Below, piece after piece: positions 8,685 through 49,088 of a stretch of 64,000 nt of DNA. A model generated the notes under the pieces. It saw nothing but the letters and a program-made list of their open reading frames with translations, made no database searches and was not told the DNA's origin. This DNA is from Candidatus Woesearchaeota archaeon (lineage in GTDB: Archaea; Nanobdellota; Nanobdellia; Pacearchaeales; GW2011-AR1): the NCBI GenBank assembly GCA_964448605.1, contig CAYUZV010000001.1, positions 8,693 through 72,692 of the forward strand, given 5' to 3'. The first letter of the stretch is position 1, and each line of letters starts with the position of its first letter. The position numbers and the translations under genes were made by a program.

Positions 8685-8724
8685 ATATGGAAATGTTTTT
8701 ATAGTTTAAAATAGTTTGGTTTTT

Positions 8725-43606: not shown

Positions 43607-44209
43607 ATGATTCAGTATATAATAGCTTTTTTAGTGATGTTAAATCCTTTTGCAATGTTTCTTTATCTTCGTCCTGTTATGAAAGAATTGGATGATAAAA
43701 CTTTTTATAAAGTTTTGTGGAAAGCGAGTTTTATTTCTTTTATAATTTTTGCTTTGTTTTTATTTTCTGGAAATTTTCTTTTTGAAAATGTATTTCATAT
43801 TAATTTTGAATCATTTAGAGTTTTTGGGGGGATAATTATTTTTTCATTTTCTTATTTGTTTATTGTTGGTGGTAGAAAAGCATTGGTTCAGTTGAAAGAG
43901 GATTTGGATGATTTAGCTTCAGAGATTGCTCTGCCTTTTATGATTGGGGCTGGAACAATTTCTTTGACACTTTTAATGGCTTATGAAATTAGTATGATGG
44001 CTGCTTTTTTGGGAATTATTTTAATTTTGTCTTTGAATTTTTTGACTATTGGTTTTTTGAAATTTTTCAAGGATCATATAAGGTCTAAAAATTTCCAGAT
44101 TGCTTTTGATAAAAATATGGAATTGTTATTAAGATTGAATGGTTTTTTTCTTGGTGCTATTGGTATTAATATGATTGTTACTGGATTGAATAATTTGGGT
44201 GTTTTTTAG
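43607..44209 (+). CDS. MarC-family (UPF0056) integral membrane protein.
   Basis: 200 aa with about 6 TM helices. N-terminus IIAFLVMLNPFAMFLYL is typical of MarC. Confidence 0.45.
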   Translation: MIQYIIAFLVMLNPFAMFLYLRPVMKELDDKTFYKVLWKASFISFIIFALFLFSGNFLFENVFHINFESFRVFGGIIIFSFSYLFIVGGRKALVQLKEDLDDLASEIALPFMIGAGTISLTLLMAYEISMMAAFLGIILILSLNFLTIGFLKFFKDHIRSKNFQIAFDKNMELLLRLNGFFLGAIGINMIVTGLNNLGVF

Positions 44210-44327
44210 TTTAGAAGCGAAAGGATATATTTTTTGCATCTAAATTTTGAAAGTATTCTTTGATAAATATTTTTTAATAGCAAGGTTTATATGCTTTGAA
44301 TTTAGAATTATTTAGGGGGAAATTCAA

Positions 44328-44417
44328 ATGCCAAGAAATAGAGTTACAAGAAAGGTTAAGGCTCGGAGTAAGCAGGCTCAGAGACGGAAGTCTAAATTGA
44401 GAAAGTTAAAGAAGTGA
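44328..44417 (+). CDS. Very small basic protein of 29 aa (MPRNRVTRKVKARSKQAQRRKSKLRKLKK), possibly a small ribosomal-type protein.
   Basis: Preceded by a GGGGG Shine-Dalgarno-like run 8 nt upstream. Extremely K/R-rich. Not in the ORF track because it is under 60 aa. Confidence 0.25.
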   Translation: MPRNRVTRKVKARSKQAQRRKSKLRKLKK

Positions 44418-44493
44418 TTTATAAAGTTTTTAAAATGAGTAGTTTTTTTGATGGTAGAGTTGCAAAAATTTTGTAGTTAATAGAAAATAATAA

Positions 44494-44853
44494 TCAATAC
44501 AATGAGGCAAGATATTTTGGTAAATTTTCATTTTGAGCGAGTAATTTTTGTGTAATAGTTTCTTGCCGAGCAGGTCTAGTTCCAACTGCTGTTTTAACAT
44601 CGCCAGTGATAACTTTACCCTCAGCAACATAAGTAACTCTTTGATTGACTAATTCACTTCCAATATATGCACGAAAATCAATTGGAATTGTCTTACCCCT
44701 ATCAGTTAGTATTTCTAATTTAGTAGTAATTCTTGTATCTTTTAAAGAATGTCCAGAAGGACCTGTTGTAGAGTTATGATATGTTTCATAGGATATTATT
44801 CTTTTTAATAAACCTGTTACACTAAATTTCTCAGGTATTTCTTGTTCAGTCAT
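44494..44853 (-). CDS. Hypothetical protein.
   Basis: 119 aa with no motif. Confidence 0.3.
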   Translation of the reverse strand: MTEQEIPEKFSVTGLLKRIISYETYHNSTTGPSGHSLKDTRITTKLEILTDRGKTIPIDFRAYIGSELVNQRVTYVAEGKVITGDVKTAVGTRPARQETITQKLLAQNENLPKYLASLY

Positions 44854-44981
44854 CTCAATATAATTTAAACAGAATTTTTAAAGATTTATATACTTTGTAA
44901 TATTATTAAAATTCAGTAAGCTCTACAAAATATAGACCTTCTTGCTAAGATAGGTTACAGAAATGTAACACTTAGTAGATT

Positions 44982-45239
44982 TTATTTCAACATCTTCTTT
45001 AAATCAGGTAATTGTTCTTCAATAAATTCTATTATTTCTTTTTTGTATTTTGTATTCAAAGATATCCCAGTATAATTTGGTTTCTTTTTGATTAATAGCC
45101 AACCCATCTTATTTAACTCTTTTATTATTTTATCTAGATTTTGAAATCTTCTGAAATGTTCTAATCTATCATATTTTGCTCCCCAGTTCTTTTTTGAAAA
45201 TGCTAGTTTAAACATTAATTTCGCTTTCTCTTTTTCCAT
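44982..45239 (-). CDS. Hypothetical small protein.
   Basis: 85 aa, basic. Confidence 0.25.
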   Translation of the reverse strand: MEKEKAKLMFKLAFSKKNWGAKYDRLEHFRRFQNLDKIIKELNKMGWLLIKKKPNYTGISLNTKYKKEIIEFIEEQLPDLKKMLK

Positions 45240-45365
45240 TATTTTGGCAAGTTTTGATATTATTTAAATATTTCTCATCTTGATAGTTTAAATGTTTAAA
45301 AGAGAAATATTTAAATAGTTTAAATAATTTGAATATCCATAAAAGTTTGAATTGAGTGAAATAAG

Positions 45366-45716
45366 ATGGAAAAAAGCCAATCTGCATTTTTAGAATATTT
45401 TGGAGATACTCCTAAATTGAGATTTTTAGATTTCTTAATTGGAAATCATTTTTTTGATTTCAATATGACTGATATGGCTAGAGAGGCAAATATTAGTTAT
45501 AATTCTCTTATAAGTTTTTTTGATGAGTTTTTAGAAAAAGGAATAATTATTAAGACAAGAAGAGTTGGAAAGTCTGATATGTATAAATTGAATTTAGATA
45601 ATTCTATTTCAAAGAGATTTTTACAATTTGCTTGGTTTTTGACTAAGCAGGATTTGGATGTTGGGAGTGATGATGATTCTTCTTTAGTTGATAATAGAGA
45701 AGTTGTTAGAGTTTAA
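45366..45716 (+). CDS. Winged-helix DNA-binding transcriptional regulator.
   Basis: FNMTDMAREANISYNSLISFFDEFLEKGIIIKTRRVGKSDMYKL is an HTH plus wing pattern. Confidence 0.4.
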   Translation: MEKSQSAFLEYFGDTPKLRFLDFLIGNHFFDFNMTDMAREANISYNSLISFFDEFLEKGIIIKTRRVGKSDMYKLNLDNSISKRFLQFAWFLTKQDLDVGSDDDSSLVDNREVVRV

Positions 45717-45909
45717 TGATTTTAAAAATTAAAATACCCCTTCGGCAAGTCAAACCTGCCGATAAAGGATTTGAACCTTGGGGAACCAGCAACATGGCAT
45801 TGGTTTATTTTTACCAGTTTATACCCTTAGCACATGGCTATTTAATTTTTTTACAGGGTGATGAGATTAAAAATCTCGATTCATATTATGTTTAATATAT
45901 AAACTATGA

Positions 45910-46257
45910 TTAAGTCTGTATTGTTGGTGAGATTTTGCTAATTTCTTCTATTGATTTTAATGCTTCTTCTATTGCTTTAATCTGCTCGTTAAAAACAGCT
46001 TCTTTATCTTTTAATTGCTCCTGTGCATTTTCATATTCTTGAGAAGTTCTTTCTATTTCTATTTCTAATTTCCTTTGCTCTCTTTTAATATCTTCTTGAA
46101 TATCTTTTTTCCAGTTTTCTAAATCTTTTTTAAGTTTTTCAACATTCTGCTCTTTAGCAGTAACATTCTCCTTAAGTTTAGATTTACTACTCATTATTTC
46201 TAGTTTTCTGGTTGTTAATCTTTCAACTATACTATATCTTGATTGACTTTCTGCCAT
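45910..46257 (-). CDS. Coiled-coil protein.
   Basis: 115 aa of heptad-rich K/E sequence. Confidence 0.3.
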   Translation of the reverse strand: MAESQSRYSIVERLTTRKLEIMSSKSKLKENVTAKEQNVEKLKKDLENWKKDIQEDIKREQRKLEIEIERTSQEYENAQEQLKDKEAVFNEQIKAIEEALKSIEEISKISPTIQT

Positions 46258-46420
46258 CTTAGATTTAGAGAAAATACCTTTTTAAAATTTTATGTTTTTG
46301 GGTTAGAGGTATTTTAATGTCACAGGAATTTTAGAATAGTGATACTCTACAATTGGCAAAATAGAATTATTGAAAGTTGTTGAAATAGGTAACCTTATAA
46401 ATTATTAAATATCTTTATAT

Positions 46421-46455
46421 TTCGCTTCGCATACAGAGATTGAAAATCTCTGTCT
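46421..46455 (+). repeat. Hairpin-containing repeat unit, copy 1 (TTCGCTTCGCATACAGAGATTGAAAATCTCTG).
   Basis: Perfect 8-bp stem CAGAGATT/AATCTCTG with a GAAA loop. Related copy at 46873-46916. Confidence 0.4.
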
Positions 46456-46697
46456 TCTTGGTTCTTACGACCTTTGGATAAAGGTATTGCCGAGCAATTT
46501 GCAATTGACAATTTATGAGAATAACAATTGTAAATTGGGAGTAGAGCAAAAGCAATTTTACTAAAAACTCAATAATAAGAAATTGCTTTTGGGAGCAGGA
46601 TTGTTAAAATAGTAAGATAAAAATGGGCACTATGTTAAAAACAGATAATTATTTAAGGATTAGATTACTAATATTTTAGAAAATGGAAAAACAAATA

Positions 46698-46838
46698 ATG
46701 GATTTTAGTGTGTTTATAGAACAAGATGGAGATGGAATTTATGTAGCAAAGGTCCCTGAAATTGAAGGTTGTTATACTCAAGGTAAAACTTTAGAAGAAG
46801 TTATGGAGAGAATAGTAAAGAAGAGTACGAAGAATTGA
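46698..46838 (+). pseudogene. Truncated HicB-like (UPF0150) antitoxin fragment.
   Basis: 46-aa ORF MDFSVFIEQDGDGIYVAKVPEIEGCYTQGKTLEEVMERIVKKSTKN matches the N-terminal HicB/UPF0150 fold motif. No cognate HicA recognisable upstream. Confidence 0.45.
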
Positions 46839-46872
46839 GGGAAAGGTTTAAAACTACATTATTTTTATCATA

Positions 46873-46916
46873 TTCGTATGCCAACATCGCATCCAGAGAA
46901 TCTTTGATTCTCTGCC
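46873..46916 (+). repeat. Hairpin-containing repeat unit, copy 2 (TTCGTATGCCAACATCGCATCCAGAGAATCTTTGATTCTCTG).
   Basis: 9-bp stem CAGAGAATC/GATTCTCTG. Shares a CGCAT[A/C]CAGAGA(A)T core with copy 1. Confidence 0.4.
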
Positions 46917-46941
46917 TCATTCAAATTCATAGAATTTGAAT

Positions 46942-46968
46942 ATAATGGTATTGCACCAGATTGCTAAG
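46942..46968 (+). repeat. Partial copy of the tRNA-Ser 5' region (D-arm through anticodon loop).
   Basis: ATAATGGTATTGCACCAGATTGCTAA is identical to positions 47438-47463 of the intact tRNA, then diverges. Confidence 0.5.
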
Positions 46969-47233
46969 ATGGTTGAACAAAATAGGGCAATTAGTAAAAA
47001 TGAAAAAACAAAATAAAAAACTGACTCATATTAATTTTTTGCTTTATTTTGGAATCCCTCTACTTTTATTAGGAATATTACTTTCAATAACTCATTTTTA
47101 TCTGGGTAGTTGGATTAATCTAATACCTTCATCTTCTGCACCTATTATTGCTTCGTTAGTTATGATTATTGGTGGTTTAATTTTAGTTATTGGATGGTTA
47201 AAACACTTTTTAAAAGGAACAAAATATATTTAA
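46961..47233 (+). CDS. Small membrane protein lying between the two tRNA-fragment repeats.
   Basis: 90 aa with 2 TM helices. Likely ATG at 46969. Confidence 0.25.
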   Translation: MLRWLNKIGQLVKMKKQNKKLTHINFLLYFGIPLLLLGILLSITHFYLGSWINLIPSSSAPIIASLVMIIGGLILVIGWLKHFLKGTKYI

Positions 47234-47280
47234 GATAAGAATAGTAAGCTTTAAATCTCCTTAATTTCTTTTATTTTTAT

Positions 47281-47318
47281 GCCCACTTCGTATAATGGTA
47301 TTGCACTTGGTTGCTAAG
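47281..47318 (+). repeat. Second, more divergent partial tRNA 5' copy (GCCCACTTCGTATAATGGTATTGCACTTGGTTGCTAAG).
   Basis: Acceptor/D-arm-like 5' end similar to the tRNA-Ser (GCCGCAGTCGCATAATGGTATTGCA). The anticodon stem cannot pair. No 3' half found downstream. Confidence 0.45.
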
Positions 47319-47427
47319 AAGGACTACAAAGTGTTACACTGGTTAGAAATTAGTTATAAAATAATAACGAAAAAATCATAATCACTAACACAAAACTTTA
47401 AATCATCAAAAGGACACAGAAATATAT

Positions 47428-47508
47428 GCCGCAGTCGCATAATGGTATTGCACCAGATTGCTAATCTGGACCCTTCGGGGTGCGTAGGTTCGATTCCTGC
47501 CTGCGGCG
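47428..47508 (+). tRNA. tRNA-Ser (anticodon GCU), type II with long variable arm. No encoded CCA.
   Basis: Manually folded. Acceptor GCCGCAG/CTGCGGC. D-arm GCAT-AATGGTA-TTGC. Anticodon stem CCAGA/TCTGG with loop TTGCTAA. Variable arm ACCCTTCGGGGTG. T-arm GTAGG-TTCGATT-CCTGC. Discriminator G. Followed by a T-rich tract. Confidence 0.8.
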
Positions 47509-47567
47509 TTTTTATTTTAAATTCATTAACTTTAAATAATCTATATATTTTTGAATTTAATAAAAAG

Positions 47568-49088
47568 ATGAAACTTAATATTTTAATTGGTGGAAAAGCA
47601 GGACAAGGAATTAATAAGATATCAGAGATTATTTCAAATGTTTTTACTAAAAATGGATATTTTGTTTTTAATTATCGGGATTATCCTTCGTTGATTCGGG
47701 GAGGACATAATTTTAATGTTCTTACGATTTCTGATTCAGAGGTTTTTTCAAATGAGTCTAAATTTGATGCTGTGATTGCTATGGATGAGAATAGTGTTAA
47801 GGTTCACGAAGGTGAGTTGAAAAAGGAGGGTGTTGTTTTTAAGGGAGATGATTATAAGGATTTGGGAAGAGATTTGAATATTGCTCTTGCTTCTGCTTAT
47901 CTTAAGAGTATTGGTATTTCTAAGGAAGTTGTGGTTGAAGAAGTTAAATCTCATTTTGAACATGAGGGTGCTAGAAATGCTGTTGAGGAAGGTTATTCAT
48001 TTGAGGGAGATATTGATGATTGTGGTTTTTGTAAGAGGGATGGTGATATTGTGAAAATGACTGGAAGTGTGGGGATTTCTGAAGGTGCAATTAATTCAGG
48101 TATTGATGTTTATCTTGCTTATCCAATGACTCCTGCAACAGGAGTTTTGCATGATTTAGCGAGTAAGCAGGAGAAACATGGTTTTTTGGTTTTTCAACCT
48201 GAAAATGAGATTGCTGTTGCAAATGCTTCTTTGGGTTGCAGTTTTGCTGGTGCTAAAACAATGGTTGGGAGTTCAGGAGGAGGTTATGATTTGATGACAG
48301 AGGCATTGAGTATGCAGGGGATGGCTGAAATTCCTTTAGTTGTTTATCTTGCTTCAAGACCCGGACCTGGTACAGGTGTTCCAACTTATTCATTACAAGA
48401 TGATTTAGATGTTGCTTTAAGGGGAGGGCATGGAGAATTTCCAAGAGTAGTGATTGCTCCTGGAGACCCTGTTGAATGTATTGAAAATACTAATGAGGCA
48501 TTTTATTTATCTGAGAAATTTGGAGTTTTGAGTATTGTTTTAAGTGATAAACATCTGGCTGAAAGTGAATTTAGTTCTGATAGAGATTTAAAAAAATCTT
48601 TGAAGGTTGAGGTTAAAAGAAAAGTTCCAGGTGAGGGAATTGTTAAGTCAAGCAGTTATGAACACGATAAGAATTGGAACACTATTGAAGATGCTGAAAC
48701 TGCTAAGGAATTTGCTGATAAGAGGGTTGCTCGTTATGGTTTGATTAAGGATGAGTGTAAGAAGTTTGATATGATTAAAATTCATGGGAAAACGGATAGT
48801 AAGAATTTGGTGATTGGTTGGGGTTCTACTAAAGGAGCTATTTTAGATGCTATTCGGGGAGAGGATTTTAAATTTTTGCAGGTTTTATATTTGAAACCTT
48901 TGAGCGATGAGATAAGGAAAGAGATAGAGAGTGCTAATAAGATAATTTTGGTTGAACAAAATGTTACAGGGCAGTTGGGCAGGTTGATTAGAGAGAAAAC
49001 TGGAATTAAGATTGATAAAAGGATTTTGAGATATGATACTCGTCCTTTTAATAGTGATGAGTTAAAGGTGGAGTTATTGAAAATTTAA
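47568..49088 (+). CDS. 2-oxoacid:ferredoxin oxidoreductase, fused gamma-alpha subunit (PorG/PorA-like).
   Basis: N-terminus MKLNILIGGKAGQGINKISEII (gamma-subunit GGxGGQG motif). Alpha-domain motifs AYPMTPATG and GGGYDLM. The ORF-track start at 47442 lies inside the tRNA and is rejected. No beta subunit is adjacent. Confidence 0.7.
   Translation: MKLNILIGGKAGQGINKISEIISNVFTKNGYFVFNYRDYPSLIRGGHNFNVLTISDSEVFSNESKFDAVIAMDENSVKVHEGELKKEGVVFKGDDYKDLGRDLNIALASAYLKSIGISKEVVVEEVKSHFEHEGARNAVEEGYSFEGDIDDCGFCKRDGDIVKMTGSVGISEGAINSGIDVYLAYPMTPATGVLHDLASKQEKHGFLVFQPENEIAVANASLGCSFAGAKTMVGSSGGGYDLMTEALSMQGMAEIPLVVYLASRPGPGTGVPTYSLQDDLDVALRGGHGEFPRVVIAPGDPVECIENTNEAFYLSEKFGVLSIVLSDKHLAESEFSSDRDLKKSLKVEVKRKVPGEGIVKSSSYEHDKNWNTIEDAETAKEFADKRVARYGLIKDECKKFDMIKIHGKTDSKNLVIGWGSTKGAILDAIRGEDFKFLQVLYLKPLSDEIRKEIESANKIILVEQNVTGQLGRLIREKTGIKIDKRILRYDTRPFNSDELKVELLKI

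Follow-up and report, generated by a model that had tools for sequence, protein, structure and literature searches.

We analyzed a 64,000-nucleotide stretch of DNA (hereafter the window; positions 8,693 to 72,692 of contig CAYUZV010000001.1 in the Candidatus Woesearchaeota archaeon assembly GCA_964448605.1), focusing on its tRNA-Ser(GCU) gene and on the truncated copies of that gene that lie upstream of it. The host is a DPANN archaeon with low G+C content (about 29%), and its 2-oxoacid:ferredoxin oxidoreductase (OFOR) is 60–77% identical to proteins from Pacearchaeota, Nanoarchaeota and Woesearchaeota genomes. A Logan assembly of run SRR7048218, made independently, reproduced window positions 43751–47455 at 100% identity, and the array of copies is thus not a chimera of the metagenome-assembled genome. 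ARAGORN detected a single tRNA in the window, tRNA-Ser(GCU) at 47427–47509, and Rfam placed it at 47428–47508 on the plus strand (61.4 bits), with all seven acceptor pairs and all five anticodon-stem pairs formed and a long variable arm, in agreement with the intact gene proposed by an initial annotation of the sequence. At permissive thresholds, Rfam returned only chance-level snoRNA-like matches beyond this tRNA in the window and at the locus.

The 26-nt core of the gene from the D loop to the anticodon loop (ATAATGGTATTGCACCAGATTGCTAA) occurs exactly at 46942–46967 and at 47439–47464 and with three mismatches at 47292–47317, whereas none is expected when judged against 100 shuffles. Both the identical 26-nt copy at 46942 and the more divergent copy at 47281–47318 that had been noticed initially are therefore real, with zero and three mismatches, respectively. 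Together, the direct tRNA repeats at 46942, 47292 and 47439 measure 26–47 nt, and the intact gene is the 3′-most of them. A motif that joins the start site, the acceptor 5′ strand and the D stem (TATGCC-NNNN-TCG[C/T]AT) was found at 46877, 47278 and 47425, compared with 0.12 matches expected by chance in the whole window. At least three 5′ halves, starting at 46420, 46880 and 47281, lie on the same strand as the intact gene; each follows a TTTAAA-type box about 25–35 nt upstream, as read from the sequence, and every one ends at the anticodon loop (TTGCTAA or TTGTTAA), after which comes a segment of ~35 nt that we term the Y arm. The earlier view of two partial copies thus held for their strand and fell short in their extent, as each is a complete 5′ half and at least three such halves bear promoter-like boxes. 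The acceptor 5′ strands differ, reading GCCAACA in the copy at 46880, GCCCACT in the copy at 47281 and GCCGCAG in the intact gene.

The oldest recognizable 5′ half, module A (46393–46626, on the plus strand, as are all features of the array), is a fourth, more decayed copy (46420–46607) that is 84% identical over 82 nt to positions 60–139 of L130, one of the metagenome contigs compared below. It comprises a TATA-like box (CCTTATAAAT, 46393–46402), a remnant of nt 1–13 (TTTCGCT-TCGCAT, 46420–46432), an insertion after nt 13 (46433–46477) with one hairpin at 46433–46453 and a second that has decayed, nt 14–26 (ATAAAGGTATTGCC, 46478–46491), two hairpin units at position 26 (46492–46541 and 46544–46595), CAGGA with the loop TTGTTAA (46596–46607) and a short Y-arm remnant (46608–46626). 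Module 1 (46845–47001) has a TATA-like box (GGTTTAAAAC, 46845–46854), nt 1–13 (GCCAACA-TCGCAT, 46880–46892), a two-hairpin insertion with stems CAGAGAATC/GATTCTCTG and TTCAAATTC/GAATTTGAA (46893–46941), nt 14–38 identical to the intact gene (46942–46967) and a Y arm at 46968–47001 (Y-arm profile E = 7e-6). Module 2 (47248–47351) has a TATA-like box (GCTTTAAATC, 47248–47257), an uninterrupted 5′ half (47281–47317; acceptor GCCCACT, D stem TCGTAT, anticodon stem CTTGG, loop TTGCTAA) and a Y arm at 47318–47351 (E = 1e-6). The promoter region of the intact gene itself carries a different segment, the X arm (ACTTTAAATCATCAAAAGGACACAGAAATATAT, 47391–47427).

Small open reading frames (ORFs) lie between some of these modules. 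The region 46637–46838 holds a 3′-truncated hicB (ORF 46683–46838, 51 aa) behind a conserved leader of 46 nt; its product matched HicB_lk_antitox (E = 2e-5, under the Pfam cut-off at 25.2 vs. 27) and PHROG 497 (E = 9e-8). ORF and leader are 83% identical to contig L129 over 178 nt, and the protein is 91% identical over 44 aa to the full-length HicB of L129 and breaks off after residue 44, which confirms the truncated HicB antitoxin suspected at the outset. L129 encodes an intact hicB (Pfam 39 bits) and hicA (71.7 bits) directly upstream of its tRNA-Ser(GCU), while in the window hicA is absent beside hicB and no full-length HicB with adjacent HicA was found. Because hicB shares 83% nucleotide identity with L129, while no relative of the host proteins exceeds 70% amino acid identity, hicB appears to be mobile cargo. 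A 77-aa ORF follows at 47000–47233. The small membrane ORF proposed between the copies is real and has two hydrophobic segments by eye, and no homologs could be assigned to it: it matched only itself among 5.8 billion proteins and had no Pfam or PHROG match. The last interval, between module 2 and the intact gene, contains no ORF.

The hairpins are insertions within the tRNA halves. The initial annotation described two related hairpin units as elements in their own right; the units exist, but both are insertions between nt 13 and 14 inside 5′ halves, one (46893–46941, 49 nt) in the copy starting at 46880 and the other (46433–46453) in the decayed copy at 46420–46607. In nhmmer searches, a profile of the nt-13 insertion matched module 1 (E = 4e-8) and module A (46433–46455), and a position-26 profile matched 46492–46541 (E = 2e-5) and 46544–46595 (E = 3e-7). 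Both kinds of insertion occupy the same places in other contigs, from unrelated samples, and neither profile matched anywhere outside the pseudo-tRNA modules of the window and 130 loci, by which a miniature inverted-repeat transposable element or other small dispersed repeat was ruled out. Across six sequences, the nt-13 hairpins covary, with 94.7% of cells paired, four pairs changed on both sides and none of 500 shuffles reaching the score, a pattern that is suggestive of pairing kept by compensatory change in a set too small to prove selection. In four contigs, an intact tRNA-Ser is preceded by a duplicate of its own start, consisting of the first 13 nt in L062 (3444–3513), L129 (1551–1613) and L042 (485–571, reverse strand) and of the first 69 nt in L003 (13900–14123), with 36–86 nt of hairpin-containing sequence between duplicate and intact gene. 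The duplicated nt 1–13 look like a second recombination or insertion point after TCGCAT.

Insertions within tRNA genes call to mind archaeal introns, and the copies could in principle be exons of a tRNA-Ser gene with several introns. Related genes do carry introns: a scan of metagenome contigs for the 26-nt core, with anticodon-stem positions left free, yielded 120 loci from Nanoarchaeota/Pacearchaeota, most of them normal tRNA-Ser(GCU) genes and ~13 with a canonical 37/38 intron of 50–100 nt and a matching 3′ exon. These introns end in GCAA-NN|A and score H = 4, h = 5 for a bulge–helix–bulge (BHB) motif, as in L056, where our scoring script recovered the real intron with exactly these values, but the window insertions do neither: the nt-13 insertion reached an H of 3 or less at the tested boundaries, and the position-26 hairpin reached H = 4 only at boundaries from which no normal tRNA would result. 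Neither is there a 3′ exon after any copy, and the copies' acceptors do not pair with the sole 3′ strand available, which together make the intron explanation exceedingly improbable. The introns (L012, L040, L056, L069, L085, L094, L096, L107, L109, L112, L113, L120 and L125) share a G+C-rich palindrome (e.g., GAAGAACCAAGGTTCTTC) and the GCAA-NN ending. A related sequence stands after nt 13 in L042, which hints that intron-like sequence moves between positions of the tRNA.

A nhmmer profile of the Y arm found 11 instances, in eight contigs and the window, all directly after the loop and in one orientation. The nearest relatives of the window arms in other contigs are 91%, 77% and 73% identical, compared with 53–68% among the window arms themselves. 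The arm of module 2 is closest to one in L074 (L074b, 73%) and to L042 (72%), and that of an isolated relic further upstream (44949–44981; E = 2e-8) is 91% identical to the arm in L105. Judged by sequence similarity, the window arms belong to a family of cassettes seen in other contigs. These comparisons bear on the alternative, raised in the initial annotation, that the fragments are pseudo-tRNAs left by local duplication and decay with no mobile element involved. All copies do share one strand and fall within 1.1 kb, and one of them matches the gene exactly over 26 nt; yet each flanking arm is nearer to arms of other contigs than to its neighbors in the window, and the same composite modules with hairpin insertions recur in contigs from unrelated samples. 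Moreover, the copies differ at positions that vary among functional tRNA-Ser genes of other lineages (acceptor nt 4–7 and the anticodon stem) with the invariant D arm untouched, and their acceptors look like different functional variants. Local duplication thus fails to account for the array, and we regard it as very unlikely.

Other explanations of the Y arm were also considered. A coding function was ruled out by a stop codon in L062. No consistent pairing was apparent, by inspection, that would make it a conserved RNA hairpin or a partner of the acceptor strand. The profile found no inverted Y arm in the window, and a transposon with terminal inverted repeats and a 7-bp target duplication was rejected, with inverted arms present only in L105.

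Among the 120 loci, ~12 have orphan 5′ halves that end in TTGCTAA followed by a Y arm (L042, L062, L074 with three, L080/L130 with three, L105, L112, L059, L088 and L127). In addition, L067 and the genome contig L003 have orphan 5′ starts with the nt-13 insertion that end before the anticodon loop and lack a Y arm. The comparison that carries most information is between L042 and five contigs with an empty site (L023, L050, L115, L021 and L076), in which tRNA-Met is followed by a promoter, about 25 nt and an intact tRNA-Ser; L021, L050 and L042 come from one sequencing project. The tRNA-Met flank of L042 is 98–100% identical to these contigs and the tRNA-Ser is shared, while L042 has ~810 bp of extra DNA. 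At its left end, the host promoter runs directly into ...GATTGCTAA, most of the host 5′ half having been lost by a deletion between two TGGATT repeats. There follow a variant arm (Y′, a type also present in L059 and L080), a 72-aa ORF on the opposite strand, a promoter with nt 1–13, 62 nt, a full 5′ half with a Y arm and, at the right end, a 100-aa ORF, a promoter and the intact tRNA. The extra DNA therefore consists of two units in tandem, 459 and 382 bp long between successive loop ends, inserted right after TTGCTAA, and the 39-nt repeats of the upstream complete 5′ half and the intact gene are 100% identical. The X arm of the window is of a 'GACACA' type (…AAAGGACACAGAAATATAT) otherwise found only in L042 and L062, where it closes the last cassette on the right; since the empty-site relatives have a different upstream sequence, this arm is element-derived in L042. 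Likewise, L127 and L116, whose upstream flanks are 89.5% identical, diverge exactly after TTGCTAA. A check against relatives for empty sites, as proposed with the initial annotation, thus showed presence/absence differences for homologous modules in both comparisons.

Two further arrangements involve the same nucleotide. In L017 (1491–1720, = L051), one tRNA sits inside another: behind an outer 5′ half (GCCCAGT) come AAA and an entire tRNA-Ser(GCU) of different sequence, and the 3′ half beyond it has a ~50-nt hairpin insertion in the variable arm and an acceptor that matches that of the outer 5′ half at 7/7 positions. In L105 (8201–8330), downstream of the intact tRNA-Ser, two inverted Y arms precede an orphan 3′ half that begins with another TTGCTAA. 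The acceptor of this half (TGTTGGC) is complementary to the GCCAACA of a window orphan, and a decayed T-arm/acceptor fragment follows.

The form of the orphans raises the question of split tRNA genes, in which the 5′ halves would be working genes trans-spliced to a distant 3′ half and the Y arm would pair with a complementary leader. All copies have retained a promoter-like box, their ends at the loop are a single nucleotide away from the usual 37/38 split or intron site, the host belongs to a phylum in which split tRNAs have been found (bioRxiv 10.64898/2026.05.13.725050), and the 3′ half in L105 is preceded by an inverted Y-arm-like sequence. Against this, an intact tRNA-Ser(GCU) stands next to the halves and makes them redundant, and the 64-kb window contains no T arm or 3′ half with matching acceptor and no inverted Y arm. 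The L105 3′ half retains a full second loop, such that the central 4-bp helix of a BHB cannot form (UUGC vs. UUGC), two of the window copies are broken by a 45–49-nt insertion after nt 13 that fails the BHB test, and the copies in L042 are demonstrably insertions. Split tRNA genes are accordingly a highly improbable explanation of the array.

We consider it likely that 46393–47464 is a tandem array of three miniature integrative cassettes placed 5′ of tRNA-Ser(GCU) and preceded on the left by a fourth, older module. Taken between successive loop ends, cassette lengths are 360 bp (46608–46967, with the truncated hicB as cargo), 350 bp (46968–47317, with the 77-aa ORF) and 147 bp (47318–47464), on the same scale as the L042 units. 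A cassette begins with a Y arm, may contain a single small ORF, and ends with a promoter and the tRNA 5′ half as far as the anticodon loop; its junction lies at the end of TTGCTAA, as the empty and occupied sites of the L042 lineage delimit it. Entry would occur by site-specific recombination at the end of this loop, a tRNA integration in 'reverse orientation': the promoter and 5′ half of the cassette would join the resident 3′ half, by which the gene stays intact, while the former promoter and 5′ half would be displaced upstream as an orphan with the newcomer's Y arm behind it, and repeated events would stack orphans. Of the earlier proposal that small mobile elements targeting the 5′ part of the tRNA gene had integrated and then been excised or decayed, successive integration is supported by the L042 and L127 comparisons and by the arm family, while nothing shows excision. 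The elements appear to be tiny by nature rather than large ones that have decayed; the fresh L042 units are already small.

Several observations weigh against this explanation. Orphan acceptors GCCAACA and GCCCACT pair with the resident 3′ strand at only three of seven positions, whereas in L042 and L112 the orphan acceptor is compatible with the resident remainder; because of this poor pairing, the window orphans cannot be former working halves of this tRNA-Ser, and a chain of productive integrations into a functional gene is not predicted to produce it. The mismatch would be explained by entry at orphan sites, which are free of functional constraint, or by arrival as a block, and we infer that the window copies with non-matching acceptors arrived in one of these ways rather than via the functional gene. 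The empty sites come from other lineages than that of the window, whose nearest OFOR relative among 5.8 billion proteins is only 70% identical, and the region has no island signal in G+C content. The nested genes of L017/L051 and the 3′ orphan of L105 indicate another mode of insertion at the same nucleotide. Scans of IMG/VR with the tRNA core and a Y-arm 15-mer found no element with these arms, the 63 matches to the 15-mer being without loop context and apparently due to chance. Finally, no integrase was found in the window by tblastn with four tRNA-Ser-linked integrases or with a profile of these four (best E = 0.1), as the initial annotation had also stated, or within the L042 cassettes, and we found no cassette-sized element with both its own integrase and a Y arm.

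Integrases do occur elsewhere at this tRNA. Tyrosine integrases adjoin tRNA-Ser(GCU) in four contigs. That of L050 (371 aa) is encoded immediately behind the tRNA, and 12 nt of the tRNA 3′ end are repeated at a distance of 10.8 kb. L078 has an integrase of 361 aa that shares 69% identity with that of L050, L081 has one of 386 aa, and in L074 a frameshifted integrase of the L050 family (PF00589, E = 2e-11) lies beside a three-module array. Contigs with 99% identical flanks are polymorphic at the tRNA 3′ end, where L018 is empty, L035 has a 565-bp insert and L078 an integrase-bearing element. Given these integrases and the empty and occupied states at the 3′ end, tRNA-Ser(GCU) is a two-sided hotspot, and a tyrosine recombinase acting in trans may move the mini-units. 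The ~10.8-kb element of L050 is bounded by the 12-nt repeat TGCCGTGGGCGT and encodes the integrase, a resolvase-like gene and a 502-aa protein, and the L035 insert has a 21-bp repeat. In L074 (4322–5621), a contig without an intact tRNA-Ser, the last orphan 5′ half and its Y arm stand directly before grpE-dnaK, and this chaperone operon may lie inside inserted DNA.

The cassettes could also form an integron-like platform for capture and expression, in which tRNA promoters would drive the cassette ORFs and the covarying hairpins would be folded recombination sites. Promoter boxes are kept in all copies, and in 6 of ~10 cases the Y arm is followed closely by an ORF of the same strand. Cassettes are 350–800 bp long, the fresh ones of L042 being already this small, and their usual cargo elsewhere comprises toxin-antitoxin genes, a NYN nuclease and small membrane proteins, with toxin-antitoxin genes also beside the arrays of L080, L105 and L081; the near-complete pairing of the hairpins fits as well. 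The window itself offers little in support, as its cargo is a truncated hicB, an ORF without homologs and nothing in the third cassette, and several cargo ORFs elsewhere are on the opposite strand. The only dedicated integrase found beside arrays is the frameshifted one in L074, and six hairpin sequences are too few to prove selection on them. We therefore judge such a platform unlikely.

Outside the array, the isolated relic (44920–44981, plus strand) is a decayed 5′ half (GCTCTAC...) with the loop TTGCTAA at 44942–44948, directly followed by its Y arm. It sits between two minus-strand ORFs, separated from the array by a divergent gene pair (44982–45716; o85/o116) that encodes an 85-aa protein and a 116-aa winged-helix protein. 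Across hundreds of Nanoarchaeota contigs, identities of 71% and up to 89% make this pair far better conserved than its metabolic neighbors, and it is probably a core regulator pair of the whole phylum. A single 2.5-kb island from 44920 to 47427 was ruled out, given that this host gene pair lies within it; the relic may mark an old rearrangement, and its relation to the array is uncertain. A T-arm-like sequence (GGTTCAAATCC) at 45767 on the minus strand gave no tRNA signal and was dismissed. At 45852–45920 (plus strand), Rfam snoR12 gave a weak C/D-box-like match (19.5 bits, E about 2.5) that includes a GUGAUGA box and a terminal UACAG/CUGUA stem; it overlaps the ends of two doubtful small ORFs and is probably due to chance. 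On the other side, the deposited OFOR alpha protein (P0001, 47442–49088, 548 aa) has its start ATG within the tRNA-Ser gene; homologs are 502–520 aa long, and translation probably begins at the ATG at 47568, so that the deposited version has ~42 residues in excess and extends over part of the tRNA gene. Ten genome loci with matching OFOR (60–77% identity) were examined for synteny, and tRNA-Ser was upstream in none.

Integrase-less derivatives of integrated elements are known from streptococcal integrative and conjugative elements, where they are termed cis-mobilizable elements (CIMEs). Integration into the 5′-distal part of tRNA genes, including tRNA-Ser, is rare but documented, as is the repeated use of one site to form arrays (PMC6563490). 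The elements of the first kind, described by Zhao & Williams 2002 as cited in PMC6563490 and exemplified there by CalSub-E1 at a tRNA-Ser of Ca. Caldiarchaeum subterraneum, resemble the cassettes in that the element supplies the promoter-proximal part of the tRNA, a partial 5′ copy lies upstream and the target is an archaeal tRNA-Ser. Those known elements are kilobase-scale and have their own integrase, while the units described here are 150–460 bp long, have at most one small ORF and no integrase, and share an arm of ~35 nt. In tandem accretion (PMC6563490), one tRNA site is likewise reused to form arrays of alternating att sites and elements, and members without an integrase depend on one in trans; the members here are an order of magnitude smaller, and their mobilization in trans is inferred.

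A further parallel is the tRNA-Thr of Caldiarchaeum subterraneum, of which a 5′ fragment lies 1.8 kb upstream of the gene with a recombinase-bearing insert between them (Sugahara et al. 2012, PMC3293823). Both cases have a 5′ fragment and its upstream region before an intact gene, a heterogeneous population and extra sequence inside a tRNA linked to an integration event. The Caldiarchaeum insert, however, encodes a recombinase, has six genomic copies and breaks the tRNA at nt 24–27, whereas the break here is at the end of the anticodon loop and the units lack a recombinase and are stacked. Integron cassette arrays share small single-ORF cassettes at one site, frequent toxin-antitoxin cargo and covarying structured elements between cassettes; the locus differs in that no IntI-type integrase, attI or attC is present and every cassette brings a promoter and a tRNA half, such that the likeness would be one of function only. 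The split tRNA genes of Nanoarchaeum equitans (Randau et al. 2005, as summarised in bioRxiv 10.64898/2026.05.13.725050) are, in that summary, stand-alone promoter-bearing 5′ halves ending next to 37/38 in the same phylum, as here, but the window has no partner 3′ half, complementary leader or BHB, and has an intact gene. The array is thus a known kind of event, 5′-side tRNA integration with tandem accretion, in an undescribed miniature and integrase-less form that is apparently spread across many uncultured DPANN lineages.

What appears to be new is the unit size of a few hundred bases, even when freshly inserted (as in L042, with its perfect repeats and empty-site siblings), the recurrence of the units in many uncultured DPANN lineages with shared conserved arms and structured insertions, and the fact that an essential single-copy tRNA repeatedly has its promoter and 5′ half replaced. 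For annotation, it follows that pseudo-tRNA halves of this kind are missed by standard tools. More tentatively, we suggest as a possibility that Nanoarchaeota (Pace-/Woesearchaeales) host a family of integrase-less though autonomous-looking mini-cassettes of ~150–800 bp, each made up of a Y arm, a small ORF, a promoter and a tRNA-Ser 5′ half, that accrete at the tRNA-Ser(GCU) anticodon loop and provide the tRNA with a new promoter at each insertion, forming an integron-like capture site and raw material for split tRNAs. The interest of the locus is moderate and would rise should the cassettes turn out to capture genes actively or to give rise to split tRNA genes. The array reveals a site of gene exchange in organisms with very small genomes. 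If the proposal is true, the locus would continually yield promoter-bearing 5′ halves ending next to 37/38, from which the split tRNA genes of this phylum have been proposed to arise, and would offer a concrete, testable route from the integration of mobile elements to free-standing tRNA halves in the very group in which split tRNAs were discovered.

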